DNA from: Escherichia phage APECc02 | DNA: 64,000 nucleotides | Direction: 5' to 3' (one strand) | Sequence record: NC_041869.1 | Part shown: positions 7,970-43,107 of the stretch, in pieces | Position numbering within the stretch: the first letter of the stretch is position 1 | Layout: every line of letters begins with the position of its first letter | The notes under the pieces: generated by a model | Seen by the model: only the letters and a program-made list of their open reading frames with translations | Told to the model about the DNA's origin: nothing | The model's database searches: none | Position numbers and translations under genes: made by a program

Positions 7970-8320
7970 TCAGTAGATGTTTTGTTTAATCTCTATTCCA
8001 AACTTTTTAAACGAGTCAGCTGCAAGCATGAATTTACGAGCCGCTGATGGGTTAGAAGTATGCACGAAAATCTTCACGTTGTCAACTACAGGAGGCTTAC
8101 CAAATACAAATTTTTCCTCTAGGATGCAGAAGCAATCGTATCCTTCAAAAATTTCTCCCAAGTCGCTGTCAAAATGCCACTCAGAAACTCGTCTATAAAG
8201 CTTTCTCTTGTCATTGATGAAATCCATAAACTCAGAAGAGTTCTTCAGCCAAAGAGCATCTTGGAGCCCGTAATTTGACGGATCTCTCAAGTCATCCAGC
8301 CACACAATCAACTTCTTCAT
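7970..8320 (-). CDS. hypothetical protein
   Basis: 116-aa ORF packed between the Sir2 gene and the RNA-ligase-like gene. Confidence 0.45.
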   Translation of the reverse strand: MKKLIVWLDDLRDPSNYGLQDALWLKNSSEFMDFINDKRKLYRRVSEWHFDSDLGEIFEGYDCFCILEEKFVFGKPPVVDNVKIFVHTSNPSAARKFMLAADSFKKFGIEIKQNIY

Positions 8321-9252
8321 TGCATATAGTCCTCGTTGTGGAAATAGTAGTCAAGTATCTCGCGGCGTTCCTGCTCAAGGAGACAGTTCCACACATCTTC
8401 TGTGTAATTGCTACGAATGAAGTTTACCATGCCGTAAAACTCTTCGTCAACACGTTTAAAGATATCCTCATCCCAAATCTTCCAAGCTTTACCTCTCATT
8501 ACGGCCTTCCGTGCCAAATAGTACGGAGACTTGATCTTCAGCTGCAGATCATAAGGGTAGTAAGGCTTACGAATCATATACCCTTCACCTCTTGTTTCTG
8601 CAGCTAATTCTTTTGCATAACTGAACGGAATTTCACGCACAGTGTGAGGACGTTTTGCACCAAGGTATTTGGCAATCCCATCTAAAGCTGCCTCTGGTAG
8701 CATTATTCCAGAATCATTATATCTGCAACCTATCAAATATGCGCCATGATCTTCCTGAACAATATGCGGATCTGAAGGGTGACAAATTTCAAACATGAAT
8801 GTCATGTTTTCATTGCCCATAACCTTCTTGATAAGATCTAAATTACCACATTGCTCCTGGATGGTTTCCTTTGCGAGGTTACAATATGGAGAATCAAGAG
8901 ATCCGGTTGTTGAGAACAATAGTTCACCTTTATGAGAGGATACCACACCAAGGAATCCGTTCTTTTTCTCTACCGCCGTCACAAGCTTATTGTCAGGCAG
9001 GTTGGTGGAGTTTTCTCCCAAGTTAAACACTTTTGTGAAGGGCCATGCCACAACATTTCCTTCATTACCGACAACAATGCCTCGGCACTCCAGTAAACGA
9101 GGGGACAAATGCCATAAATTGTTGTAAAATACTTTTCTGGCATATTTATAGATCTTTAACCCAAGATCCGGGTAATATCTACTGGTTACAAGACCTTTGT
9201 CAACTAGGTCGTCTGCATTAAAATACTTCATCATACGTTCCTCATTTGTCAT
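8317..9252 (-). CDS. putative RNA ligase (covalent nucleotidyltransferase)
   Basis: 311 aa; motif I KKNGF (Kx[DN]G), motif IV EGYMIRK, motif V LKIK; a separate DNA ligase already exists at 4562-5845 and a PNK-like kinase lies next door. Confidence 0.6.
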   Translation of the reverse strand: MTNEERMMKYFNADDLVDKGLVTSRYYPDLGLKIYKYARKVFYNNLWHLSPRLLECRGIVVGNEGNVVAWPFTKVFNLGENSTNLPDNKLVTAVEKKNGFLGVVSSHKGELLFSTTGSLDSPYCNLAKETIQEQCGNLDLIKKVMGNENMTFMFEICHPSDPHIVQEDHGAYLIGCRYNDSGIMLPEAALDGIAKYLGAKRPHTVREIPFSYAKELAAETRGEGYMIRKPYYPYDLQLKIKSPYYLARKAVMRGKAWKIWDEDIFKRVDEEFYGMVNFIRSNYTEDVWNCLLEQERREILDYYFHNEDYMQ

Positions 9253-9295
9253 TTTGTCAGTCTATCCTGCCACACAAATAACCTAGTGTCAACAC

Positions 9296-9324
9296 TTGAA
9301 ATTAACAAAACAGTTAGGTATACT
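9296..9324 (+). promoter_or_regulatory. sigma70-like promoter (TTGAAA-N17-TATACT)
   Basis: Hexamers with 17-nt spacing in the divergent intergenic region upstream of the kinase gene. Confidence 0.5.
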
Positions 9325-9352
9325 ATCGTTGAAATTAAAACGGAGTATTACT

Positions 9353-9763
9353 ATGTCTAAAATGCTATATATCGTGCGTGGTCTACCAGGGTCTGGCAAA
9401 TCAACACTGGCAAATGCGCTATCTTTAGAAGGTCTGTATCCACATTTTGAGAACGACATGTTCTGGTACGACGATGATGGAAATTACAACTGGGATGCAA
9501 GTAAAGTAACACTTGCAGCAAAATGGTGCAAAGATAACGTAGAAGATATGATGCGTATGGGATACGACCGTATCGTGGTAAGTAATACGTTTACAAAAGA
9601 AAAATATGTGCAAGAATATATTGACATGGCGATCAGTCATGGGTATAGTTATACCGTGATCGTGGTTGAAAACCGCCATGGTAATAAAAGCATTCATGAT
9701 GTTCCAGACAGGGTTGTGGATCGTATGGAACGCCAGCTTAAAAATTGCATTAAACTTAAATGA
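9353..9763 (+). CDS. polynucleotide 5'-kinase (P-loop, T4 Pnk kinase-domain-like)
   Basis: Start moved to the ATG at 9353 (GGAG RBS upstream). Walker A GLPGSGKST and IVVSNTFT resemble the T4 Pnk N-terminal kinase domain. Confidence 0.7.
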   Translation: MSKMLYIVRGLPGSGKSTLANALSLEGLYPHFENDMFWYDDDGNYNWDASKVTLAAKWCKDNVEDMMRMGYDRIVVSNTFTKEKYVQEYIDMAISHGYSYTVIVVENRHGNKSIHDVPDRVVDRMERQLKNCIKLK

Positions 9764-9770
9764 GGAATGT

Positions 9771-10325
9771 ATGAAATACTTTGTAACAAGCGACACACAC
9801 TTTCTCCACCAGCGGGTCATGGAGTTCGACTCATGTCAAAAACACAGATCTCAGTATGATCACAATCTTGACAGTATGAATGCGGGAATCATCACCGAGT
9901 GGAACTCTGTTGTGTCACCTGCAGACACTGTGTTCCACCTGGGAGATATTGCGTGCACTAATGATAAGAATATCAACAAATTGCTCCCAGATGTTCTAAA
10001 TATGTTGAACGGACATATTATTCTTGTTCGTGGTAACCATGACACAAGGACGACTGTCAGAATTATGAAAGAGTTCGGTCATGAGGTTGTAGATTATTAC
10101 GAGCTTCGCCACAACAAGAATTTGATCTGTATGAGCCATTACCAGTTTGCAAAGTGGAACAGAAAGCCTCACGGATCAGTCCAACTGTTCGGTCATGCTC
10201 ACGGAACCACACAGCAGTTGTTTGGCAGGCAGTTTGATGTCGGTTGGGATGTGTGGGGGAGACTCTTACCATTAGAAGAGGCATACCGTATTGCAATGAG
10301 TCTTGCTATTGACAGCGGGGAGTAA
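9771..10325 (+). CDS. calcineurin-like metallophosphoesterase
   Basis: Start at the ATG at 9771 (GAGGA RBS). Metallophosphatase motifs SDTHF, GDIA, GNHD and GHAHG. Confidence 0.75.
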   Translation: MKYFVTSDTHFLHQRVMEFDSCQKHRSQYDHNLDSMNAGIITEWNSVVSPADTVFHLGDIACTNDKNINKLLPDVLNMLNGHIILVRGNHDTRTTVRIMKEFGHEVVDYYELRHNKNLICMSHYQFAKWNRKPHGSVQLFGHAHGTTQQLFGRQFDVGWDVWGRLLPLEEAYRIAMSLAIDSGE

Positions 10326-10372
10326 TCCCTGCTATTTTAAAGAAAATTGCCACACAAGGAGAATCAGGAGAT

Positions 10373-10723
10373 ATGAAAGATGGGGATAAGCTGCTATATC
10401 TTAAAGTCCCCCTTGAAATACTGTCTATGTCAAAAGTTTTGAATGACACAACTGGGGAGGTTGTTGTTCTTGACTTGTATGACAAGATCGTATACTGCTA
10501 CCTGCACAACTGGTATAAGCTTGGAGGAAGTTCACGCTTCACACCCAGCACAAGGAAAATTGCAGCAGATGTTGGGATAAAGAAAACAAAAGCAGCAGCG
10601 TGCGTTAAAACTTTAGAATGTGCAGGAGTGGTTGAAATATCCACACAAGGGAGAGGTAAAAGATGCACATTTTCCAAAGTTTTGCCACCAGAAGAGGTTA
10701 TTCGAATGTCAACAACTGGTTAG
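10373..10723 (+). CDS. putative DNA-binding protein (helix-turn-helix-like)
   Basis: 116 aa; segment STRKIAADVGIKKTKAAACVKTLECAGVVEI looks like an HTH/winged helix; gene ends 75 bp upstream of the palindromic repeat array. Confidence 0.4.
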   Translation: MKDGDKLLYLKVPLEILSMSKVLNDTTGEVVVLDLYDKIVYCYLHNWYKLGGSSRFTPSTRKIAADVGIKKTKAAACVKTLECAGVVEISTQGRGKRCTFSKVLPPEEVIRMSTTG

Positions 10724-10798
10724 ACCAGTAAAAACTTAAATATCTGTACTATAAGGATTCGTATGTTTTATGTTCGCTCTGGAACAGAGGTTAGTAAC

Positions 10799-10879
10799 TG
10801 TCCGTGATACGGACACTACTGTCCGTCACGCGGACACATCTGCCCGTAATACGGACACTAACTGTCCGTGATACGGACA
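10799..10879. repeat. array of four 17-bp palindromes TGTCCG-N5-CGGACA at 21-22 bp spacing
   Basis: Copies at 10799, 10820, 10841 and 10863; copies 1 and 4 are identical (tgtccgtgatacggaca), copy 3 has one arm mismatch. Confidence 0.8.
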
Positions 10880-10921
10880 CATAAAGAATATAACTAAAAT
10901 AACTAAATAATAAAAAATAAA

Positions 10922-10981
10922 AGATCTAGTACTTATGGTACTAAGTACATATACTTAACTTATGTAGAATATACTAGATCC
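10922..10981. repeat. AT-rich region with nested inverted repeats
   Basis: agatctagta ... tactagatc flanking inverted repeat, plus internal palindromes agtacttatggtact and gtactaagtac; immediately downstream of the repeat array. Confidence 0.4.
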
Positions 10982-11383
10982 TAAGTACCATGTTTTAAAT
11001 TTATTACTTACTATGGGTAGTGTCGGCCCTTCATTGGCACTCGCCTACGAGGGGCGAGATGCCGGGCCTCCCTGGTGCACACAATAACAGAAGTGCATAC
11101 ATGCAGGTCTGTTAACATGTGTGGGAGCGAAGCGATAGCGCAGGCCAAAGGCCGAGCACTGATGTGGACCACCGACGAAAGCTTGCCAGCGCCGTAAGGA
11201 GTCGGTTGAGAGTCTCCCGCGCGAGCTTGGATGAAGTTTATGTGTGGAAACGGACAAGAAGGCCCCTAAATCGCTCCACAGCTATATAAACTATACCAGG
11301 TAAGGCAATCGCACCAGTTTGATAGAAAAGCTCGTTACAAAGCGATACAGTGAGTTTTTCTATAACTTGAAGAGGAGGTAGTT

Positions 11384-11962
11384 ATGAGTCCACGCAAAGA
11401 TGACCGTGAAAAGATTGCAAAACGTTATCAGAATGAAGAACAGATGGAGAAAACTTTCAAGTGGAAGCCAGGTTTCCAGCGTAATCATTCTAACGCTCGT
11501 GATCGTAAGCATCCGGATAAGTGGTTAACACCGCCAAATGATGGCATTCAGGTTGGTGATGAGAAGGAGCTGTCACCTGGAAAAGATGGCAACTACATTC
11601 GAACTAAGGAAGCAGGTCCAAAGGATGACAGCTATCTTGTAGATAAGGTTCTTGACGGTGTTGATGTAGGTGTTGACACTGTACGAAACCTTTTTCTTGG
11701 TTGGTATCGCACAGGGTTTTTCGACATCAAGGCTATTCGTCGTGTTTGTGATATTAAAAAGTCTGCCTACGATGATGATTCCCTACATCGCACTCTGAGA
11801 CAATACTCAGAGAGATACGGTCATCCAGTTATCACTCTTGACGATATTAACGAAGTTATGTATCATGTAGAGGTTGTTGCAGGTAGGTTCGGTGATGCAT
11901 ATCTCGGTATTCTCTCTGCAAAGGATGAGGTAATGTTAAATAAGATTTACTATGAACGCTGA
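11384..11962 (+). CDS. hypothetical protein
   Basis: 192-aa ORF with GAGGAGG RBS upstream; first gene after the noncoding block. Confidence 0.5.
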   Translation: MSPRKDDREKIAKRYQNEEQMEKTFKWKPGFQRNHSNARDRKHPDKWLTPPNDGIQVGDEKELSPGKDGNYIRTKEAGPKDDSYLVDKVLDGVDVGVDTVRNLFLGWYRTGFFDIKAIRRVCDIKKSAYDDDSLHRTLRQYSERYGHPVITLDDINEVMYHVEVVAGRFGDAYLGILSAKDEVMLNKIYYER

Positions 11963-11971
11963 GGGGCGATT

Positions 11972-12161
11972 AATGAACAATCCGGTAGCAAAGAACTGTA
12001 ATAAATTCAACAAGTCTGCGATTCACACTGACAGGAAAAAGAGTTGGTTTCCTGACATTGACGAGGAGCTTGAGAGTTACTTTGAAGATTTAGTCACCAA
12101 TGCAGAGGAGGTTGCGATTAAAGAATACGCAGACAGGAGGGATAAGGCCGGAATCTGTTGA
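11972..12161 (+). CDS. hypothetical small protein
   Basis: About 63 aa from the ATG at 11972 (GAGGGG RBS); ORF track starts 20 nt earlier. Confidence 0.35.
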
Positions 12162-12186
12162 CAAAAATAATGTTACCTGATAAGAT
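12158..12186 (+). promoter_or_regulatory. sigma70-like promoter (TTGACA-N17-TAAGAT)
   Basis: Perfect -35 hexamer, 17-nt spacer; upstream of ORF 12238-12480. Confidence 0.5.
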
Positions 12187-12237
12187 CTGCAATATGATGT
12201 GATACAATTTTAACTTACGAGGTCTACAGGTAATGCT

Positions 12238-12480
12238 ATGTTTAAGGTTAAGCTCGTTTTTCGTTCCATGAATGAGGATTATTTAGAAGATGAAGGTGAA
12301 TTTCGTGCACTGGATGATGCAATAGATTTTGCCAACGACTTAGCTTGTATGAATACGGGTTATGGGCTATGCTGTTGGGATGGTGGTGTTCAGATCGGTG
12401 ATAGCAAGATCTTCTACTTCTACCCTGAGCCCGATAACAAACAAATTAAGTATGTTTTATTTATTTGTGCTTTACAATGA
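12238..12480 (+). CDS. hypothetical protein
   Basis: 80-aa acidic ORF downstream of a consensus promoter. Confidence 0.5.
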   Translation: MFKVKLVFRSMNEDYLEDEGEFRALDDAIDFANDLACMNTGYGLCCWDGGVQIGDSKIFYFYPEPDNKQIKYVLFICALQ

Positions 12481-12767
12481 GGTTGTTTTCGTGTATCATG
12501 ATGAATATCCAATTTAAAGATGAATTTGATGGCTTTATCTCCGGATGCTTTGAAACAGGGTTCGGAGAAGGCTGAGTTACCCTTAGAGGGCTTGATAGTG
12601 CACCACACTTAAAATGGTAGGGGCAGCCAGCACATGACGATGTGACCCCAGCCAACCTGTAATAAGGTCGAGCCAAAGCGCGGTAATGGGCTCTGGTAAC
12701 CCACTTGTTGGGTCTTGCTGGTCCAGGACGCTGGACAAGTCGCAGGGAATACCACCCTGCGGCGAAC

Positions 12768-12796
12768 TTGACAATCAGTATTTGCTATGATAAAAT
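12768..12796 (+). promoter_or_regulatory. sigma70-like promoter (TTGACA-N17-TAAAAT)
   Basis: Perfect -35 and near-consensus -10 about 30 nt upstream of the ATG at 12826. Confidence 0.55.
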
Positions 12797-12825
12797 CCAC
12801 CTATCACGTGATAATGGAGGAAACA

Positions 12826-13163
12826 TGGCGGATACAACTAAAAAGCGTCGCCGTAGAGGCAGACCTCTGAAAGAGGAGTCCAACGCCATTCAGCTAGAGA
12901 AGAACATCCTTGATATGAAGGAATCTTTTATAGCGATGGTTCCAGAAGCTCACAAAGTTTTAAGAGAGCTGATGTTGGACCCGAAAACCAAACAAAATAT
13001 TCGTCAAAGCATTGCAGAGTATGTTCTTGATAAGGCAGACCGAATGCAGGAAGAATATGATGAGATGTTTGGTGAAGAGGAAGAGGTGGTAGTAGAAGAG
13101 GCTGAAAAACCAGCACCTTTTATGCCATTTACCACAGAAATACAGCCTGTTGGCAATAGTTAA
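12826..13163 (+). CDS. hypothetical protein with basic N-terminus and acidic C-terminus
   Basis: Start moved to the ATG at 12826 (GGAGG RBS); KKRRRRGRP N-terminus, EEEEVVVEE tail. The track's 12705 start would run through the promoter. Confidence 0.5.
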
Positions 13164-13172
13164 AATATTTTC

Positions 13173-13201
13173 TTGACAAACTTTGCTTAACAGTGTAATA
13201 T
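13173..13201 (+). promoter_or_regulatory. sigma70 promoter (TTGACA-N17-TAATAT) for the tRNA cluster
   Basis: Consensus hexamers about 60 nt upstream of the first tRNA. Confidence 0.6.
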
Positions 13202-13259
13202 TGTAAACATGGTCTCCCACCTTTTCTGGCGGCTAAGGTGTAAAAGAAAGCCACCCAGT

Positions 13260-13334
13260 GCCCTGTTAGCTTAGTGGATAAAGCAGCGGCCTTCTAAGCC
13301 GTTGACACTGGTTCGAGTCCAGTACGGGGTGCCA
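13260..13334 (+). tRNA. tRNA-Arg (anticodon TCT)
   Basis: Hand-folded cloverleaf: acceptor gccctgt/acggggt (two G-U pairs), D stem gctt/aagc, anticodon loop cttctaa, T arm actgg-ttcgagt-ccagt, encoded CCA. Confidence 0.75.
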
Positions 13335-13338
13335 AATT

Positions 13339-13425
13339 GGGGAGTTATCCCGTAGAGGTAGCGGTGTAGACTGTAAATCTATTGTCATTGCGACTCGGGT
13401 GGTTCGACTCCACCACTCCCCACCA
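13339..13425 (+). tRNA. tRNA-Tyr (anticodon GTA), long variable arm
   Basis: Acceptor ggggagt/actcccc, anticodon loop ctgtaaa, T arm ggtgg-ttcgact-ccacc, encoded CCA; 87 nt type II. Confidence 0.75.
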
Positions 13426-13539
13426 AATTTACATTTTTAAATGCATAAATCATACAGATAATGGCATTGATATTTATCGTCGTTTATACTAGTCACTAAC
13501 TGCTCGAAAATCAGTGTCATTATCAGTATTGTTTATAAA

Positions 13540-13630
13540 TGAGGGTAGGGAGCAATGGTGCTCAAGCGGTCTTGAAAACCGTCCCGTTGAGGATGACTCG
13601 ATGATGGTTCGATTCCATTACCCTCAGCCA
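13540..13630 (+). tRNA. tRNA-Ser (anticodon TGA), long variable arm
   Basis: Acceptor tgagggt/accctca, anticodon stem-loop gcggt-cttgaaa-accgt, T loop ttcgatt, encoded CCA; 91 nt. Confidence 0.7.
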
Positions 13631-13728
13631 TATTGTTGACCTTGTAATTAAGCGAAAGCCGGAAGCAGAACCGGATTATCAAATGTTACAGTCGTCATCG
13701 CCGACTAGCAACATGGTCAACATACTGA

Positions 13729-13825
13729 GCTAGGTAAGCCCTTTGGCAAGGGCGAGGATTTTTAATCCTGAAAATAGACGAGGTAGTCGTTGAATACATA
13801 GGTGGTTCGATTCCATCACCTAGCA
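13729..13825 (+). tRNA. tRNA-like gene, identity ambiguous (anticodon possibly TTT, Lys)
   Basis: Perfect acceptor gctaggt/acctagc, D stem gccc/gggc, T arm ggtgg-ttcgatt-ccatc, but about 30 nt between anticodon arm and T arm, no position-26 spacer, no encoded CCA. Confidence 0.4.
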
Positions 13826-13832
13826 CCTTTTT

Positions 13833-13908
13833 GCTGATGTAGCACAATTGGTAGTGCAATTGATTTGTAATCAATAGGTTGCAGGTTCGAGTCCTGCTAT
13901 CAGCACCA
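13833..13908 (+). tRNA. tRNA-Thr (anticodon TGT)
   Basis: Acceptor gctgatg/tatcagc, D stem gcac/gtgc, anticodon arm attga-tttgtaa-tcaat, T arm gcagg-ttcgagt-cctgc, CCA; 76 nt. Confidence 0.8.
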
Positions 13909-13909
13909 T

Positions 13910-13984
13910 GGCCCTGTAGCTGGAAGGTTCAAGCAAGCGACTCATAATCGCCAGACGGTGGTTCAATTCCACCCAGGGCCACCA
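13910..13984 (+). tRNA. tRNA with CAT anticodon (Met, or Ile2 read via lysidine)
   Basis: Acceptor ggccctg/cagggcc, anticodon loop ctcataa, T arm ggtgg-ttcaatt-ccacc, CCA. The anticodon arm gcgactcataatcgc resembles bacterial tRNA-Ile2 as I recall it. Confidence 0.7.
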
Positions 13985-13995
13985 AATAATAAATA

Positions 13996-14072
13996 CTCCG
14001 CGTAGCTCAGCTTGGTAGAGCGCCTGATTTGGGATCAGGAGGTCGAGTGTTCGAATCACTCCGTGGAGACCA
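13996..14072 (+). tRNA. tRNA-Pro (anticodon TGG)
   Basis: Acceptor ctccgcg/cgtggag with C1-G72, D arm gctc-agcttggta-gagc, anticodon arm cctga-tttggga-tcagg, T arm gagtg-ttcgaat-cactc, CCA. Confidence 0.8.
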
Positions 14073-14118
14073 CTTTCAGTTATACTTTAAACATATACAA
14101 ACAAAAGGAACCTTTAAA

Positions 14119-14388
14119 ATGTATACACTTAAAATTGTAGAGCGTGTAAATCCAACCCATACTGTAGATTTTCGTGACGATTTCAATCCTCTGGCTGTAA
14201 ATCTTCGAGAGTCATATCATGAACTCAGCTGCGATGCAGTGGTGGTCTTTTTTGAAGACAACTCTGAAGGGGCAGTAGCTTGTGTTGTTGATAGTGAGCA
14301 GAAGTTTTATATTTACAGAGATGTAGATGCATACTTGATGAATGAAAATGCAGTTACTGTTAGAATCATCCACCGAGTGCCTCGATAA
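14119..14388 (+). CDS. hypothetical protein
   Basis: Start moved to the ATG at 14119 (AAGGAA RBS); the track start at 14029 lies inside tRNA-Pro. 89 aa. Confidence 0.45.
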   Translation: MYTLKIVERVNPTHTVDFRDDFNPLAVNLRESYHELSCDAVVVFFEDNSEGAVACVVDSEQKFYIYRDVDAYLMNENAVTVRIIHRVPR

Positions 14389-14440
14389 GTATTAGTCTCC
14401 TTTTAGTTAGTTTCGATCTATTTAGGTTACTCAATTTTAA

Positions 14441-14485
14441 CCCGCCCCGTTAGCTGTATAGCTGTATAGCTGCGGGGTTTTTTCG
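14441..14485 (+). terminator. putative rho-independent terminator
   Basis: GC stem cccgc/gcggg with a large loop holding a gctgtatagctgtatagctg tandem, then a 7-T run. Confidence 0.5.
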
Positions 14486-14501
14486 TTTCTGGAGCCTTAA
14501 A

Positions 14502-14900
14502 ATGATTTCAGTTTTAACATGGCTGAGTAGGTATAGAGGGATCATAAAAGGTTTAGTTTTTGCAGCTGCGCTAGGTACAGCTTATCTTGGGGCCGTATAT
14601 TGGTTTAACTCTAAGCTTAATGAAGCCTACCAAGAGGGTGTGTCAGCAACAGAGTTAAAGTGGGAACGGATCCTTGATCAGCAACAAAAGCAGGCCGACA
14701 AAATTAAAATGGGCCACGCAGAGGAGGTTAAAAACCTTGAAAAATCCCTTTCTGATCTGCAGGATAAATTAAATATGGCTGAGAAGGCAGGTAAAGAAAA
14801 GCAGATTATCTACCTCCAGTCACCTGAAGGCAAGAAGTCAACACTTCCTGATCAGCTTATAGATATTTATAATGAGAGTATCAATCAGGAGGATCAATGA
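14502..14900 (+). CDS. putative i-spanin (Rz-like)
   Basis: 132 aa; single N-terminal transmembrane segment (GLVFAAALGTAYLGAVYWF) then charged coiled-coil-like sequence; overlaps the next gene by 4 nt. Confidence 0.55.
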   Translation: MISVLTWLSRYRGIIKGLVFAAALGTAYLGAVYWFNSKLNEAYQEGVSATELKWERILDQQQKQADKIKMGHAEEVKNLEKSLSDLQDKLNMAEKAGKEKQIIYLQSPEGKKSTLPDQLIDIYNESINQEDQ

Positions 14901-15184
14901 GAGTTGCTACACTGTTTATTGCGTGCTTGTTATTATGTGGGTGTGCAACCAGCGTTGAGAGAGAATACAAGATTGACCCTCCGGATGTAGGAAGGTTGAT
15001 TGTTAAACCCCCGGAAGGTGCCATGAAACCACCTGCTAAAGCTATGCCTTTGAAGAAAGGTGCTCCAGATGCAGTAAATTCTGGCATTATGAGGGATAAT
15101 AATTTGTCTTGTAGCAATGATAGAGCTAAATTGATCATTTTGCAAGACTATATTAGAACACTGTTTCCAAAGGAGAGAGGTTAA
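14897..15184 (+). CDS. putative o-spanin (Rz1-like lipoprotein)
   Basis: 95 aa; signal peptide ending in a lipobox-like LLCGC, proline-rich mature part; stop overlaps the terminase start codon. Confidence 0.55.
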   Translation: MRVATLFIACLLLCGCATSVEREYKIDPPDVGRLIVKPPEGAMKPPAKAMPLKKGAPDAVNSGIMRDNNLSCSNDRAKLIILQDYIRTLFPKERG

Positions 15185-37646: not shown

Positions 37647-40600
37647 ATGGCTGATATTAAAGTTGTCAGAATCGAATCTCTTCCTGCCACTACCGCAGTG
37701 ACAGAGGATGATTACCTGGTTGTTCAACAACCAGACCTGACCCGTCGTGTAAAAATTGGCGATGTTGTCCATGTGGATGGGACTGTTTCTCATGTAATCT
37801 CCTTTAAGGAAGGTGGTAAGTTAAACGGCCCAATGGATTTTGCCTACTTCGAAGAGGAAGACCTCTACCTGCGTTGGAAAGGCGAATTTCCACACACTGT
37901 TCCTGCACTATCTTCACCGTACTCCGATGGTGGGATTACTGACGCTGCATGGATGGTATATACAGATCCGTCCTTAAGGGAGGAGCTGGAATCTACCATT
38001 GGCGCATCTATGATCATGACAGCCGAAGGGCAGTCTGTCCAGGATGTAATGGATGTTACTGTTCAAACAGCTAACGATGCTAAAGCACTTGCACAGCGTG
38101 TGGATTTTGGTACAGTGCACACTGTAGGTGATGTTATTCACCTTGATAACTTTGTAGGTCCTGCAGTTATTGAAGAGGGAAGAACCACCAACTACCCTTC
38201 TGTAGCAGCTGGTGAAAAATTTCTGAACGGTGTGGTATCTCGTCGTGATACTACAACTGTTGATGGTATTTTCCGTGGCGCTACCTCCGGGGCCATGTAT
38301 ACCATTGCAGTAACCAATGGTGTAGCAACAACAAAAAGAATAGCACTTCGTGATGAATTTAAACGCCTGGAGGCAAACAGCCCAACAAGAACAGTTATCC
38401 GTGCTGGAGATGATTTAAACACGGCAGGGTACTTGCAGCTTGATGCAACAGGCCGCTGGGGTATGTGGAACCAACAAACAGCCTCGTGGCAACCTCTTGC
38501 TATAGAGCAAGGCGGTACAGGAGCCAGGGATGCCGCAGGTGCACGTATTAACTTAGGGGCTTTCTATAAGCAACGTGCAGCCCTTGAGCCAAATTTCAAT
38601 ATCAATAACTTGACTGGTAATCAGGATGGTGTATACTACCAGCCGATGACTGCTTATGCAACCGAGGCAAATGGTTACCCTGCAGGTTCTGGTGCTGGTC
38701 ACTTGATTGTTTGGCAGAACAATGCTAACGGCGGTACAGGTTGTCGTCAGGAATACTATCCATTCTCTAACGTAGATGTTTGGTATTTGAGAACCTATCA
38801 AGCCAACACAAACCAGTGGACTGCATGGCAGCCGATGGTCAGACCTCGTAACGATGATACCTTTAGATCGCACATCGGTCTCGGGTCTAGAAATTCCCCT
38901 ACCTTCGGGCACCTTTACCTGTCTCAAAGTTCTGCTGATGTTAAGTCAGCATCAGGTATTGTTAACGGGGACAAATACAGCGCTGACGGTGTCCTTGAGC
39001 ATGGTTATAGGATCTACTCTGAGGTAAGAAACGACAATAAGGCTTGGTTGACAATCCACCTGCACAAAGGTGCAAAAGGATCTGAAACCCATAGATATTT
39101 AGGTTTCCGCGAAGACGGTGTATTAGACTGCCCTAAATACATGCAGGTTGGGGATCTTACTGGTCAGCTGACAAACTGGGGACTTGGAGAGTGGATACGT
39201 AGTTCAGGAGCAGAAAGAGGCTTCTGGGGATCTAAGAAAGCCGCCAAGATGGTTATCTGGGATGGCGGGATGGACGAATCCGGTAACGGCACTCTGGAAT
39301 GGGGTGTTTATAACAACCGGAAGGCCAAGTGGGAACCTCTACCTCAAGCCGCAGGTGGCACCGGGGCTACAACTCTAGTAGATGCTCAGAATCTGTTCAA
39401 AGTTCCTATAGCAGCAGGTGTGAAAGACTTCTTAACACTGCCAAGAACCGCAGGGATGGAAGATGGGAAATACTACCCGATCATCGTTAGAACAGATCCG
39501 TACTATGCTCCAGCAACTGGTACTGATATTACCATAGTTACCAGATCGTCATCTGGAAATGACCCTATGAACTGTGCTACCTTACAGTGTCACTATAGAA
39601 CTGGTGGTTGGACAGACAGAGGAGACTCTTTCTACGGGGTAGTAAATTTCTACCAGAATGAAAAAGCAATTCTTGGGATGGTTGCTCCAACAAGGGGTAA
39701 ACAAGAATATGTTGCTTTCTATGCAGAGGCGCGTGCTTTCCCTGTCAGCATATACGCAAGTAGAAATGTTGTCGAGGTGTTTACCAGGGAGCAAGATTAC
39801 CAGGTTGGCTCTGTAACAGACAATCAGGACGGTGTTAAGTTCGTTGCACCTCTCCAGTCAGCAGATTTGAATCTTGCTGTTCTTGGAGATAATAATACCA
39901 ACACCAGACCTATTGTTGACTTCAAAGGGACTTCAGGGTTCTACACTGGTGGCGGCACACAGTGGCACTATATAGGCACTGCTGAACGCTATGCTGTGAT
40001 GAGCAAAATGAATATGCCAAAAGTCGAGCTATGGGCAGACGGTCTTGACTATTTGTGCTACGGCAGTCCTAGAAAGGCGTTATTCTCTAATGCAGGCTTC
40101 CAGTGTGCATCAGATGGGACAGAGGATCTGACTAACGGTACGTTTACCTCTAAATGCGGTAATGGTGCTGGTCTCAAAGGTCAGGCAGAGTTCAGATCTA
40201 CTCCAGAGGCTGGTCAAGTTATTGTTCGTGATGTTGTAGGTTCTGCTCACAGATTCTACAACTTCAACAAAGATGGCACTTTCTCAGCTCCTGGTGGTTT
40301 TGTATGCCACACAGGTGCAGACTGGAACAACCAGTTCGGGAATAACAACCCTTCTAAAATAATGGCTGGTAACGTCAACGGACCTGAAGGTTCCATGGTT
40401 GTAGCAGGGTTGTCGGTTGGTTTTTCTGGAAACTACGCTTTCCAGATGGCAGGTCGTTTAGACCAGCTGTATACTCGTTCCATAGAGCAGGGAAACCACA
40501 GAGCGTGGAACAAAGTTATTCAGCACCGTGGTCAAGGGTTGGGAACTAATGACCTTAACGACTACAAGGCAGATCGTGAAGGGATTTACCATCAAGAGGC

Positions 40601-42086
40601 AAATGCCAACGCCACAGCGGAAAGAAATTACCCACCAGGACAGCAGATGGCTGGTACGCTGATCGTTCTTAGAAACTCCGCTAACGAAGGAACAGGTTGT
40701 ATCCAGATATATAAAATGTATCTTGGTGGAACATGGGAAAGGTATTACAATAACCTTGGCAGCGGAATGGCTTGGAGTCCTTGGAAGAGAACAAGCTTCC
40801 CAGAAAACACAACTGCTCCAGTTATGCCTGACTTGTGGTTGCCTTTAACCTCTAACCTAAAACCTGCATTGGGTGAAGGTGAGATGGTCTTCTCCAGACC
40901 TTCCACAGCAACCTATTTCACTAAGCGGGGTGTTATGGCTGTTGCACAAGCAAACCAACCACGTTTTGAAAGAGATGGGTTGCTTATCGAGGGGCAAAGG
41001 ACAAACCTCATGCTCAACAGTGAGGACCCAAGCAAGTGGGGTGCACAGCAAGCGATTACTGTCGGTAGCACTGTAACAAATACTAACGGCACAAAAGGCG
41101 CAAGATTTACAGTAAACACCACATCCGGTGTAGAAACAACAGCGTTAAACCTTGCCACTGTTCCAGCCACTAGGGGTGCCGATGTGACAGGTGCTGAGAA
41201 ATTCTGTACTGGGTCTATTATTGCAAGGGGAGGTAAAGCGAACCAGAGATTACGTGTAAGATTCGACATGTATGACGGATCCACCACAGTATTCCAAGGT
41301 GACGCTTATGTTAACCTGTCAACACTTGAAGTTAAAACAACAGGGGATGCAGCTGGGAGAATTAAAGTAAAAGCTGAGAGATGGCAAACAGCCGGACCTG
41401 CTTGGGTAAGGATTGCCGCTACGTTTGAGGCAGCGGCCTCTGACAAGAATATCGGTTGCCAGTTCCAGATTGCCCCGCCGGAGAGTTCTCAACATGCCGT
41501 AGGGGATTGGGTTGACGTTGCAATACCTCAGTTTGAGTTGGGATCTTGTGAGTCCTCGTTTATCCCTACAGGGTCTTCACCTGTAACCAGGGCGGCAGAT
41601 CTTTGTAAATTTCCAATGACGGATAACCTAGCGCCCAGACCGTTCACTATCGCCGCTACGGTTGATGCCAACTGGAGAGGCTGGGGCAAAGCTCCTAACG
41701 CAGCTCCTAGGGTTATTGATACAGAAGGTCATCAATCCGGTGCTGCATTTATCATGGGGTTTGGCTCTGCAACAAATATTGCAGATGATGGTTATCCATA
41801 CTGCGATATTGGTGGGTCAACCAGACGTGTCTATGAGATGGCTAAAGCGCGTAAATTGAAGATTGGGTTCAGGATAAAAGGGGACGGTAAAACATGCTCT
41901 TTTGCTAATGGATTGGTAAGTACGGAAACACAGTCTTCTTGGGAGTTCCTGGCAGGAGGCGCTTTCCTCCGCATTGGTGGTAAAACGGCGACAGGTGAAA
42001 GACACCTATTTGGTCATATTAAGGACATAAGAGTTTGGAACTCTGCGTTGACAGATACTCAACTCATGATGGGGAGTGTTGAATAA
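37647..42086 (+). CDS. large tail fibre protein
   Basis: 1479 aa; N-terminal anchor shared with 34344-35012; two copies of the fibre collar-like motif (WQPLAIEQGGTGARDAAGARINLG and WEPLPQAAGGTGATTLVDAQNLF); internal duplicated ~70-aa segment. Confidence 0.65.
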   Translation: MADIKVVRIESLPATTAVTEDDYLVVQQPDLTRRVKIGDVVHVDGTVSHVISFKEGGKLNGPMDFAYFEEEDLYLRWKGEFPHTVPALSSPYSDGGITDAAWMVYTDPSLREELESTIGASMIMTAEGQSVQDVMDVTVQTANDAKALAQRVDFGTVHTVGDVIHLDNFVGPAVIEEGRTTNYPSVAAGEKFLNGVVSRRDTTTVDGIFRGATSGAMYTIAVTNGVATTKRIALRDEFKRLEANSPTRTVIRAGDDLNTAGYLQLDATGRWGMWNQQTASWQPLAIEQGGTGARDAAGARINLGAFYKQRAALEPNFNINNLTGNQDGVYYQPMTAYATEANGYPAGSGAGHLIVWQNNANGGTGCRQEYYPFSNVDVWYLRTYQANTNQWTAWQPMVRPRNDDTFRSHIGLGSRNSPTFGHLYLSQSSADVKSASGIVNGDKYSADGVLEHGYRIYSEVRNDNKAWLTIHLHKGAKGSETHRYLGFREDGVLDCPKYMQVGDLTGQLTNWGLGEWIRSSGAERGFWGSKKAAKMVIWDGGMDESGNGTLEWGVYNNRKAKWEPLPQAAGGTGATTLVDAQNLFKVPIAAGVKDFLTLPRTAGMEDGKYYPIIVRTDPYYAPATGTDITIVTRSSSGNDPMNCATLQCHYRTGGWTDRGDSFYGVVNFYQNEKAILGMVAPTRGKQEYVAFYAEARAFPVSIYASRNVVEVFTREQDYQVGSVTDNQDGVKFVAPLQSADLNLAVLGDNNTNTRPIVDFKGTSGFYTGGGTQWHYIGTAERYAVMSKMNMPKVELWADGLDYLCYGSPRKALFSNAGFQCASDGTEDLTNGTFTSKCGNGAGLKGQAEFRSTPEAGQVIVRDVVGSAHRFYNFNKDGTFSAPGGFVCHTGADWNNQFGNNNPSKIMAGNVNGPEGSMVVAGLSVGFSGNYAFQMAGRLDQLYTRSIEQGNHRAWNKVIQHRGQGLGTNDLNDYKADREGIYHQEANANATAERNYPPGQQMAGTLIVLRNSANEGTGCIQIYKMYLGGTWERYYNNLGSGMAWSPWKRTSFPENTTAPVMPDLWLPLTSNLKPALGEGEMVFSRPSTATYFTKRGVMAVAQANQPRFERDGLLIEGQRTNLMLNSEDPSKWGAQQAITVGSTVTNTNGTKGARFTVNTTSGVETTALNLATVPATRGADVTGAEKFCTGSIIARGGKANQRLRVRFDMYDGSTTVFQGDAYVNLSTLEVKTTGDAAGRIKVKAERWQTAGPAWVRIAATFEAAASDKNIGCQFQIAPPESSQHAVGDWVDVAIPQFELGSCESSFIPTGSSPVTRAADLCKFPMTDNLAPRPFTIAATVDANWRGWGKAPNAAPRVIDTEGHQSGAAFIMGFGSATNIADDGYPYCDIGGSTRRVYEMAKARKLKIGFRIKGDGKTCSFANGLVSTETQSSWEFLAGGAFLRIGGKTATGERHLFGHIKDIRVWNSALTDTQLMMGSVE

Positions 42087-42418
42087 TGAATATTTTTACC
42101 CTTGGATTCACTGACAGGGAGGACTTTAACGGTTTCATGGATGAAATCGGCTTTTATGAGAATGAGGTGTTGCAAAACACCCTTCTTGTAGAGGTTGTCG
42201 GGTTCATTTACACAGAGACTGGAGACACTTATGAGGCCGAAGATGAATTTGGCAACATGGTTGTCTACCCGGTTTGCGAGAAAAGTGAATTGTTTTATGT
42301 TAACGTTCTGGCTCTGGACGAGGATGCAGAAAACATCGTCTCTAAAAGCGGAAAAGTTGTAGATCCGATAAGGTTGAACATGTTCGACCCATCAGTATCC
42401 ACCTTGGAAGCACTTTAA
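42086..42418 (+). CDS. hypothetical protein (possible fibre-associated)
   Basis: 110-aa acidic ORF overlapping the fibre stop, followed by a terminator. Confidence 0.4.
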   Translation: MNIFTLGFTDREDFNGFMDEIGFYENEVLQNTLLVEVVGFIYTETGDTYEAEDEFGNMVVYPVCEKSELFYVNVLALDEDAENIVSKSGKVVDPIRLNMFDPSVSTLEAL

Positions 42419-42425
42419 AGTATTG

Positions 42426-42450
42426 CCCTCGCTTCGGCGGGGGTTTTTTG
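42426..42450 (+). terminator. rho-independent terminator
   Basis: ccctcgc-ttcg-gcggggg hairpin plus TTTTTT. Confidence 0.8.
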
Positions 42451-42456
42451 TTTGTA

Positions 42457-42485
42457 TTGCGTATTAACTTAAAATCTGGTAAAAT
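42457..42485 (+). promoter_or_regulatory. putative promoter (TTGCGT-N17-TAAAAT, TGG upstream)
   Basis: Same tggtaaaata -10 context as the other late-region promoters. Confidence 0.45.
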
Positions 42486-42516
42486 AACTATCATAATTGT
42501 TTAACCTGGAGGCATA

Positions 42517-43107
42517 ATGTTTTTATGGGAAAGGCCTAGATACCTTCCAGATATTAGATTAGAGTTGCTGGCAGATATTGTCACGTTTAAAAGTCCGTTT
42601 ACAGGTAAAACGCAAAAAGTAACCTATGCCACGCCTAACTGGAAAGGCACTTTGACGGTCTCCAATATCAGCGAGTCACAGTTACTAGAGCTTAAGAGCT
42701 TTGTTGATCAGGTGTATAAAGATGGGAACATCTTTCTTATTAAAACTTACGGTCACTCGGTAACAGCTAACGAGCCAATCGCCCTTGGGCCTACTGGTAA
42801 CGACGATTTTTTGAAGACTGTTGGGTGGGAGCCAAACAGAGACATAGCCAGAGCCGGGGATAAAATATCTGTCAATGATGAATTGAAAGTGGTAACAGCT
42901 CCAGTGCGTAGCGATGGTGTTGGGTCTGCTGTTATAGGCATATCTCCAAGACTTAGAAAACCTATTGCCGCAGGGGACACCATGAAGATAATAACTCAAT
43001 CTCCGAAGGGTAGGTTTCATATCAGAGATATTTATAAAATTAAGCAAAAAGTCGATGCTATGCAAAAAGGTGATAATATAGTTATCAACTTCTTTGAGGA
43101 TTTCTAA
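42517..43107 (+). CDS. hypothetical distal tail protein
   Basis: 196-aa ORF, first of four tightly overlapping genes before the 1199-aa protein. Confidence 0.4.
   Translation: MFLWERPRYLPDIRLELLADIVTFKSPFTGKTQKVTYATPNWKGTLTVSNISESQLLELKSFVDQVYKDGNIFLIKTYGHSVTANEPIALGPTGNDDFLKTVGWEPNRDIARAGDKISVNDELKVVTAPVRSDGVGSAVIGISPRLRKPIAAGDTMKIITQSPKGRFHIRDIYKIKQKVDAMQKGDNIVINFFEDF

Follow-up and report, generated by a model that had tools for sequence, protein, structure and literature searches.

By computational comparison, we identified a region in an rV5-like Escherichia phage that is probably a self-contained iteron origin of replication of the lambda type, served by a shortened initiator. The region comprises positions 10336-11021 of the window, as we call the whole 64,000 nt stretch of Escherichia phage APECc02 (NC_041869.1) that was analyzed and that we assigned to an rV5-like Vequintavirus. 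An origin is favored by the sites, by their being unique and by the way they are conserved, by the predicted fold of the protein encoded next to them, by the reappearance of these palindromes in O-like genes and by a natural exchange in which protein and sites changed together.

Phages of the rV5 type are among the most often isolated E. coli phages and are part of the collections used for typing and therapy. In the searchable literature, no location has so far been given for their origin. The skew analysis in the rV5 genome paper gave only changes in the direction of transcription, and no origin was defined (PMC3606486). Our literature search for the motif TGTCCG-N5-CGGACA and for Vequintavirus origins returned nothing relevant. 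The following features were delineated:

10309-10338, plus strand: sigma-70-like promoter preceding the putative initiator gene (promoter scan; TTGACA, 18 nt, TATTTT, with TG)
10336-11021, no strand: exchangeable module of leader, putative initiator gene, iterons and AT-rich stretch (comparison with contig L077)
10373-10723, plus strand: gene of a 116-aa winged-helix protein, read as a RepA-N-terminal-domain-like or O-like origin-binding domain
10724-10798, no strand: 75 bp spacer from the stop codon to the first iteron, with 25 of 75 alignment columns varying
10799-10815, no strand: iteron 1, TGTCCGTGATACGGACA (motif scan and alignment of relatives)
10820-10836, no strand: iteron 2, TGTCCGTCACGCGGACA (motif scan and alignment of relatives)
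10841-10857, no strand: iteron 3, TGCCCGTAATACGGACA (TGCCCG arm with one mismatch, a C at arm position 3)
10863-10879, no strand: iteron 4, TGTCCGTGATACGGACA (motif scan and alignment of relatives)
10880-11019, no strand: AT-rich stretch, candidate DNA-unwinding element (genome-extreme A+T content and instability)
11022-11383, plus strand: non-coding element, conserved and rich in G+C (56-59%), that follows the AT-rich stretch outside the module and precedes the gene of a 192-aa protein

The closest relative is Escherichia phage AlexBoehm, 99.8% identical over positions 10300-11400, and more than 110 other Vequintavirus (rV5-like) genomes are 95-99% identical over the same interval. The genes upstream lie on the minus strand up to 9252, and from 9296 on the plus strand carries, in this order, a polynucleotide kinase gene, a phosphoesterase gene, the 116-aa ORF, a 660 bp gap, the 192-aa ORF, tRNA genes, the terminase gene and structural genes. 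Both this divergent junction and the minimum of the cumulative GC skew lie 1.5 kb from the locus; as the skew turns where the direction of transcription changes, it proves nothing alone. The promoter at 10309-10338 covers the same bases that are annotated as P76 in the rV5 GenBank record. No terminator was predicted between the 116-aa gene and position 11384, so transcripts probably cross the array.

Palindrome array and AT-rich stretch

All four copies of TGTCCG-N5-CGGACA that the original prediction had described at 21-22 bp intervals were located. This 17 bp consensus recurs with start-to-start spacings of 21, 21 and 22 bp and, allowing at most one mismatch, is found four times in the window against 0.09 expected, a number reached by none of 100 shuffled sequences. 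Tandem Repeats Finder ranked the array first, both within the window and against the rest of the genome. The genome-wide search that had been proposed yielded no further copies: in the complete AlexBoehm genome (135,345 bp) the four iterons are the sole ones at up to one mismatch. A few database records mark them as "repeat_region".

To describe conservation, we aligned 15 related loci with initiator proteins 85-100% identical. Variable columns numbered 3 of 48 in the palindrome arms, 0 of 13 in the linkers between the sites and 8 of 20 in the central N5. All three variable arm columns are T/C exchanges at arm position 3, the sole arm position varying among the relatives. The spacer upstream of the first iteron is the most variable segment of the region, and in the coding flanks 15-25% of the columns vary, mostly at third codon positions. 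Arms and linkers taken together differ from the N5 (Fisher test, p = 4e-4) and from the upstream spacer (p = 3e-5). Two phages have three sites, exactly one 21 bp unit being lost with the phasing kept. Judged from these alignments, conserved arms around variable centers fit the pattern that would be expected of a protein whose contacts with a palindrome are on the two arms and spare the center.

The AT-rich stretch reported to follow the palindromes is real, with 81% A+T at 10880-11010. It is the most AT-rich segment of the entire 135 kb genome at lengths of 60, 100 and 130 bp and contains its least stable 100 bp, with a summed dG of -102 compared to a mean of -133.7 (sd 5.7), about 5.5 sd off the genome mean. 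Within it lie two TAACTAAA repeats (10891 and 10900) and two GATC sites (10923 and 10977). The stretch is conserved among the 15 loci: 15 of its 140 columns vary, a smaller share than in the upstream spacer (25 of 75; p = 9e-5). A DnaA-box-like sequence was not found at up to one mismatch between 10701 and 11400, nor was an IHF consensus found at the locus.

Less could be made of the nested palindromes and the 10 bp inverted repeat, to which the original prediction had given weight. The AT-rich part holds a perfect 9 nt pair (10923-31/10972-80) and an 11 nt pair with 91% match (10935-45/10981-91), which cross and are not nested. Exact inverted repeats of at least 9 nt appear in 24% of composition-matched simulations, the DNA hairpin energy of the stretch is ordinary (z = -0.66), and the 11 nt pair is broken in relatives without compensation. 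With occurrence at chance level and no compensatory change, we rejected these inverted repeats as a cruciform or a second binding site.

The second most AT-rich 100 bp of the AlexBoehm genome lies outside the window, in a 2.5 kb segment without annotated genes at a convergent transcription junction (AlexBoehm 90469-92994, corresponding to 40469-42994 of our locus L008). This segment also contains short tandem repeats (L008 41368-41887).

The winged-helix protein and the exchanged module

The small HTH-like protein suggested at 10373-10723 is present as a winged helix-turn-helix protein of 116 aa and, more specifically, is an initiator-type DNA-binding domain. Its stop codon occupies 10721-10723, and the iterons begin 75 bp further on. 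It matches phrog_12838, "replication initiation protein", with an e-value of 8.5e-80, while weak PHROG links to O-like families run through relatives only. In Pfam, the top hit, DUF6945 (PF22182), reached 24.9 bits where the cut-off is 28, and HTH_36 followed with 22.8 bits, also just under its cut-off; neither RepA_N (PF06970) nor Phage_rep_O was hit at e-values up to 1. Two remote homologs exceed the DUF6945 cut-off (P0017 with 31.9 bits and P0018 with 47.7 bits). The best sequence match in the PDB was 4ro3 (e-value 7.4e-6, 27% identity), a fragment that itself scores 80.7 bits on DUF6945. This structure is the N-terminal domain of RepA from a Vibrio satellite (PLE), a protein that binds the origin repeats and drives replication according to EMSA and genetics, and that is structurally grouped with the RepA_N plasmid initiators (PMC7145576).

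An AlphaFold2 model of the protein (pLDDT 79) has a single winged-helix domain of the DnaD-N-like type, supplemented by strands at the N-terminus and a helix at the C-terminus. A Foldseek search of the PDB with this model again gave 4ro3 as the top match (TM 0.66, e-value 1e-5), followed by 4pql, 4pt7, 5kbj and 4pta. These initiator folds align over 107-118 columns, whereas ordinary repressors align over only the ~70-residue helix-turn-helix core. The solved relatives of the RepA-N-terminal-domain fold are dimers on iteron DNA, among them 5kbj, a staphylococcal RepA N-terminal domain solved on iteron DNA. Cooperative binding of dimers on one face of the helix would fit the palindromes, the 21-22 bp phasing and this predicted fold.

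The protein stops at residue 116, directly after the winged-helix domain, and has no C-terminal replisome-contacting or host-specific domain. Its close homologs are all 116 aa long too, and substitutions in the gene among relatives are biased toward third codon positions (13/15/60). An exhaustive HMMER search gave 14 hits among 1.8 billion representatives, hence the protein family is narrow. Searches seeded with words yielded nothing beyond near-identical proteins before a profile was applied, and a search of viral contigs with the family alignment confirmed no relatives. Gene labels are inconsistent across database records, GenBank giving "putative transcriptional regulator". Distant relatives of 182-217 aa carry C-terminal extensions.

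Longer relatives of 153-217 aa (P0010, P0016, P0017, P0023, P0025 and P0026) are encoded at the loci L010-L013. Several of the longer relatives end in an acidic tip, E/D-x-P-F, which resembles the C-terminal tail of SSB and is lacking in the window protein; by analogy, this tip suggests a possible motif for replisome contact. With only loose AGGTAC-type repeats, situated in a divergent intergenic region, the loci L010, L011 and L013 of distant homologs were not counted.

We obtained a natural exchange from L077, a divergent, Vequintavirus-like metagenomic contig of 107 kb (Logan ERR9710502). Its flanks are 87.7% identical to window positions 9761-10335 and 86% identical to 11022-12697. Between them, exactly the interval 10336-11021 is replaced by an unrelated sequence of 864 bp (L077 1771-2634). 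This cassette encodes a 143-aa remote homolog of the 116-aa protein (27% identity, e-value 5e-7; phrog_8102, replication initiation), which had no match among cultured phage records. After the gene follow five different palindromes of 18 bp, TGATACA-N4-TGTATCA, and an AT-rich stretch of its own. As protein and sites change together, the unit of exchange consists of the gene, the repeats and the AT-rich stretch. This joint change, like the conserved arms around variable centers, is compatible with binding of the repeats by the protein. The promoter at 10309-10338 sits in the flank that was kept, the boundary of homology lying at 10335. The two phages provide a ready-made specificity experiment in the form of this natural swap of protein and repeats. 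In L077, a KilA-N/ANT gene is also inserted between the kinase and the phosphoesterase genes.

The GC-rich element at 11022-11383 lies just beyond the module and is kept in L077, where its core of ~11125-11225 is nearly invariant as well. Its substitutions show no codon periodicity (9/10/8), and its RNA folds better than shuffled sequences (z = -3.15) with few compensatory pairs, one of them a clean exchange of C-G to G-C in L077. Rfam searches of 9000-15000 and 10700-11400 at permissive thresholds gave tRNAs and noise only, leaving repeats and GC-rich element unmatched. Either a structured RNA or a leader sequence for the following gene is conceivable here. Small ORFs within 11020-11290 (rV5 and BASEL annotation) were rejected as genes, for their substitutions lack codon-position bias.

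Iteron arrays in O-like genes and in known systems

We scanned viral contigs for an iteron pair of the form CGGACA-N3-6-TGYCCG-N5-CGGACA and obtained 49 loci, of which single matches can be due to chance. Many of these loci contain two to seven TGTCCG-N5-CGGACA palindromes spaced by 20-25 bp, in unrelated and mostly high-GC contigs. The examined arrays are part of ORFs, in which they fall at residues 108-296 (mostly 110-195); wherever Pfam recognizes an N-terminal winged helix of the HTH_36 or MarR-like kind, the array comes immediately behind it. Seven of ten array-bearing ORFs match PHROGs of the category "replication initiation / O-like". On the ORF-downstream side, the array is flanked by AT-enriched DNA in 11 of 12 cases, the same order as in the window. 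A profile comparison between the rV5 family and the O-like N-terminal domains gave a probability of 95% (e-value 4e-8), covering only the 35 columns of the helix-turn-helix core.

The O-like genes (in contigs L015, L027, L028, L029, L039, L048 and others) thus share with the window the palindrome arms, the N5, a 20-25 bp phasing, the AT-enriched flank on the same side and the N-terminal HTH_36 or MarR-like winged helix. They differ in that the array is translated, within an ORF of 225-532 aa that has a C-terminal domain, and they are known from sequence alone. Their nearest cultured relatives belong to siphophages of Rhodobacter capsulatus. The genes adjoining the array-bearing ORFs had no Pfam matches, so no lambda-P-like loader was demonstrable. 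The recurrence of TGTCCG-N5-CGGACA in O-like genes of unrelated contigs offers a simple signature for predicting origins in uncultured phages.

In ori-lambda, four palindromic iterons of ~18 bp are bound by one O dimer each, and an AT-rich stretch that unwinds adjoins them directly on one side. This origin lies inside gene O, in the order of the coding sequence for the DNA-binding domain, the iterons and the AT-rich DNA. The C-terminal domain of O binds P-DnaB and recruits the helicase loader, and among lambdoid phages the initiator specificity and the iterons are exchanged together. The window resembles lambda in its four palindromic iterons followed by AT-rich DNA, in their position after the gene of a DNA-binding domain and in the joint exchange of protein and iterons. 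However, its iterons lie 75 bp past the stop codon and outside any ORF, whereas those of lambda are inside O, and the ORFs after the AT-rich stretch have no coding signature, placing this origin candidate outside an initiator reading frame. The 116-aa protein also differs from O by the missing C-terminal domain and the missing Phage_rep_O match, the iteron sequence is a different one, and the phage is a virulent myovirus of 135 kb that encodes a helicase and a polymerase of its own.

RepA of PLE, the Vibrio cholerae satellite (4RO3), is the best match in both sequence and fold, in the same DUF6945 neighborhood as the window protein. It also binds semi-palindromic repeats in a non-coding region, as the window's palindromic repeats are putative sites of the 116-aa protein. 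PLE replication requires a phage SF1B helicase (PMC7145576), and rV5-like phages encode such an enzyme of the Pif1/RecD-like type. In contrast to the window protein, PLE RepA has a C-terminal domain, the identity is 27%, the PLE iterons consist of 13 bp inverted sub-repeats around a poly-A tract, and PLE is a satellite that parasitizes the replisome of another phage.

Over its full length (115-118 columns), the predicted fold aligns with the RepA_N initiators of the staphylococcal plasmids pSK41 and pTZ2162 (4pta, 4pt7, 4pql and 5kbj), whose N-terminal domains bind iterons as dimers. In these plasmids, the iterons lie inside repA and the C-terminal domain carries a host-specific function; the window has neither, and its protein lacks a Pfam RepA_N hit. 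The C-terminal domain of RepA_N initiators recruits a helicase loader or a primase. The origins of iteron plasmids such as RK2, F, P1 and pPS10 are further removed, with direct, non-palindromic iterons, a monomeric Rep of two winged helices and DnaA boxes nearby, whereas the window has palindromic sites, a single winged helix and no DnaA-box-like sequence at 10701-11400. Taken as an origin, the locus works like a lambda or RepA_N iteron origin and lacks two of the defining features, the C-terminal domain and the repeats inside the ORF.

Proposed model of initiation and alternative readings

For the 116-aa protein, we infer binding, melting and replisome loading in the following way. Judging from the promoter match alone, the host RNA polymerase would transcribe the gene early from 10309-10338. 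Dimers of the protein would bind the four 17 bp palindromes, making contact with the arms TGTCCG and CGGACA(C) but not with the 5 bp at the center. As 21-22 bp correspond to two helical turns, the four dimers would line up along the same side of the helix, where they could assemble with the DNA into a single bent complex. This complex would strain and open the adjoining 130 bp AT-rich stretch. The opened DNA would then be loaded with the phage's replication enzymes, whose genes lie elsewhere in the genome: a primase/helicase resembling T7 gp4, an SF1B helicase of the Pif1/Dda-like type and a polymerase of family A.

The largest gap in the origin model concerns recruitment of the replisome, for which lambda O and the RepA_N initiators use the C-terminal domain that the 116-aa protein lacks. 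It is quite unlikely, in our estimate, that this protein with nothing but a DNA-binding domain is a complete origin-specific initiator that melts the origin and hands over without a recruitment domain. If it did suffice, this would narrow the minimal duties of an origin-binding protein. Another idea is that the 192-aa protein of the downstream gene represents the detached C-terminal half of the initiator; it had no match in Pfam, NCBIfam or PDB, and a homolog with 51% identity was found in a different gene context. The 116-aa protein might also cooperate with a transcript of the GC-rich element at 11022-11383 acting as a primer or R-loop, in a hybrid of an iteron and a transcript-primed origin. 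Counting against a dedicated origin, large virulent phages can rely mainly on recombination- or transcript-primed replication.

Should the origin reading hold, the ~690 bp module is a target for marker-frequency mapping, for engineering and for studying how replication starts in a large virulent phage. Engineering uses include origin plasmids that are amplified upon infection and conditional replication mutants.

Of the three functions that had been left side by side, replication origin, partition site or operator, the first is favored and the other two are disfavored. In the operator or roadblock reading, a regulatory role falls to the 116-aa protein: by coating the four sites, it would control read-through from the early promoter, or an unrecognized phage promoter in the AT-rich DNA, and thereby the expression of the GC-rich element, of the 192-aa gene and of the tRNA and late genes that follow. 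The small winged-helix domain, devoid of an enzymatic or recruitment domain, is indeed like many repressors, GenBank labels the protein a transcriptional regulator, and the array is probably transcribed through. As a repressor/operator pair would be exchanged as a cassette too, the swap in L077 alone cannot separate an origin from a regulator. We nevertheless regard both forms of this regulation as unlikely. The sites follow the gene instead of lying on its own promoter, and no sigma-70-like promoter was predicted on either strand from 10338 to 11838, overlapping or after the sites, by a scan that leaves phage-specific promoter types aside. Furthermore, the full-length fold matches are N-terminal domains of initiators and repressors match over their core only, the same palindrome arrays occur within O-like initiator genes of other phages, and the swapped module includes the genome-extreme AT-rich stretch, which a roadblock does not need.

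It is very improbable that the array is a pac site, with the small protein as the DNA-recognition subunit resembling a small terminase. The large terminase gene lies ~4.3 kb downstream and no small terminase is annotated. In addition, three metagenomic contigs (L069, L070 and L071) and the start of a GenBank record (MG065672, A141) break within or just past the array. However, these ends are found at differing positions (within iteron 2/3, within iteron 4 and 10 nt past the array), which fits assembly breaks and not a defined cut; we therefore rejected them as physical genome ends, and most likely the repeats and the AT-rich DNA hampered assembly. The fold also matches initiator domains and not terminase subunits, and the iteron arrays of other phages reside in O-like initiator genes. 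A centromere-like partition site bound by an adaptor protein is hardly conceivable, even though plasmid centromeres likewise combine phased repeats with a small dimeric protein that binds them: the genes nearby encode polynucleotide kinase, metallophosphoesterase, RNA ligase and tRNAs and no ParA/ParB-, ParM- or TubZ-type protein, the phage has a virulent lifestyle and showed no genes of a plasmid-prophage, and the AT-rich element and the initiator homology would go unexplained.

Some further observations concern the records and the neighborhood of the locus. Eighteen "Campylobacter phage" records in GenBank (MG0656xx) are 91-99% identical here to rV5-like phages of E. coli; at least one is marked UNVERIFIED, and their host labels are doubtful. 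The tRNA cluster includes an unusually long tRNA-like gene of 99 nt (13729-13827), for which ARAGORN gives an odd 4-base anticodon (atcc) and Rfam a weak tRNA match of 35.5 bits, and which is annotated as tRNA-Lys or tRNA-OTHER in relatives. A possible RNA-repair cluster at 7970-10325 flanks the divergent junction and lies 3 kb from the phage tRNA cluster; its members are a T4-Rnl1-like RNA ligase, a protein with a cREC_REC domain, the polynucleotide kinase and the metallophosphoesterase.
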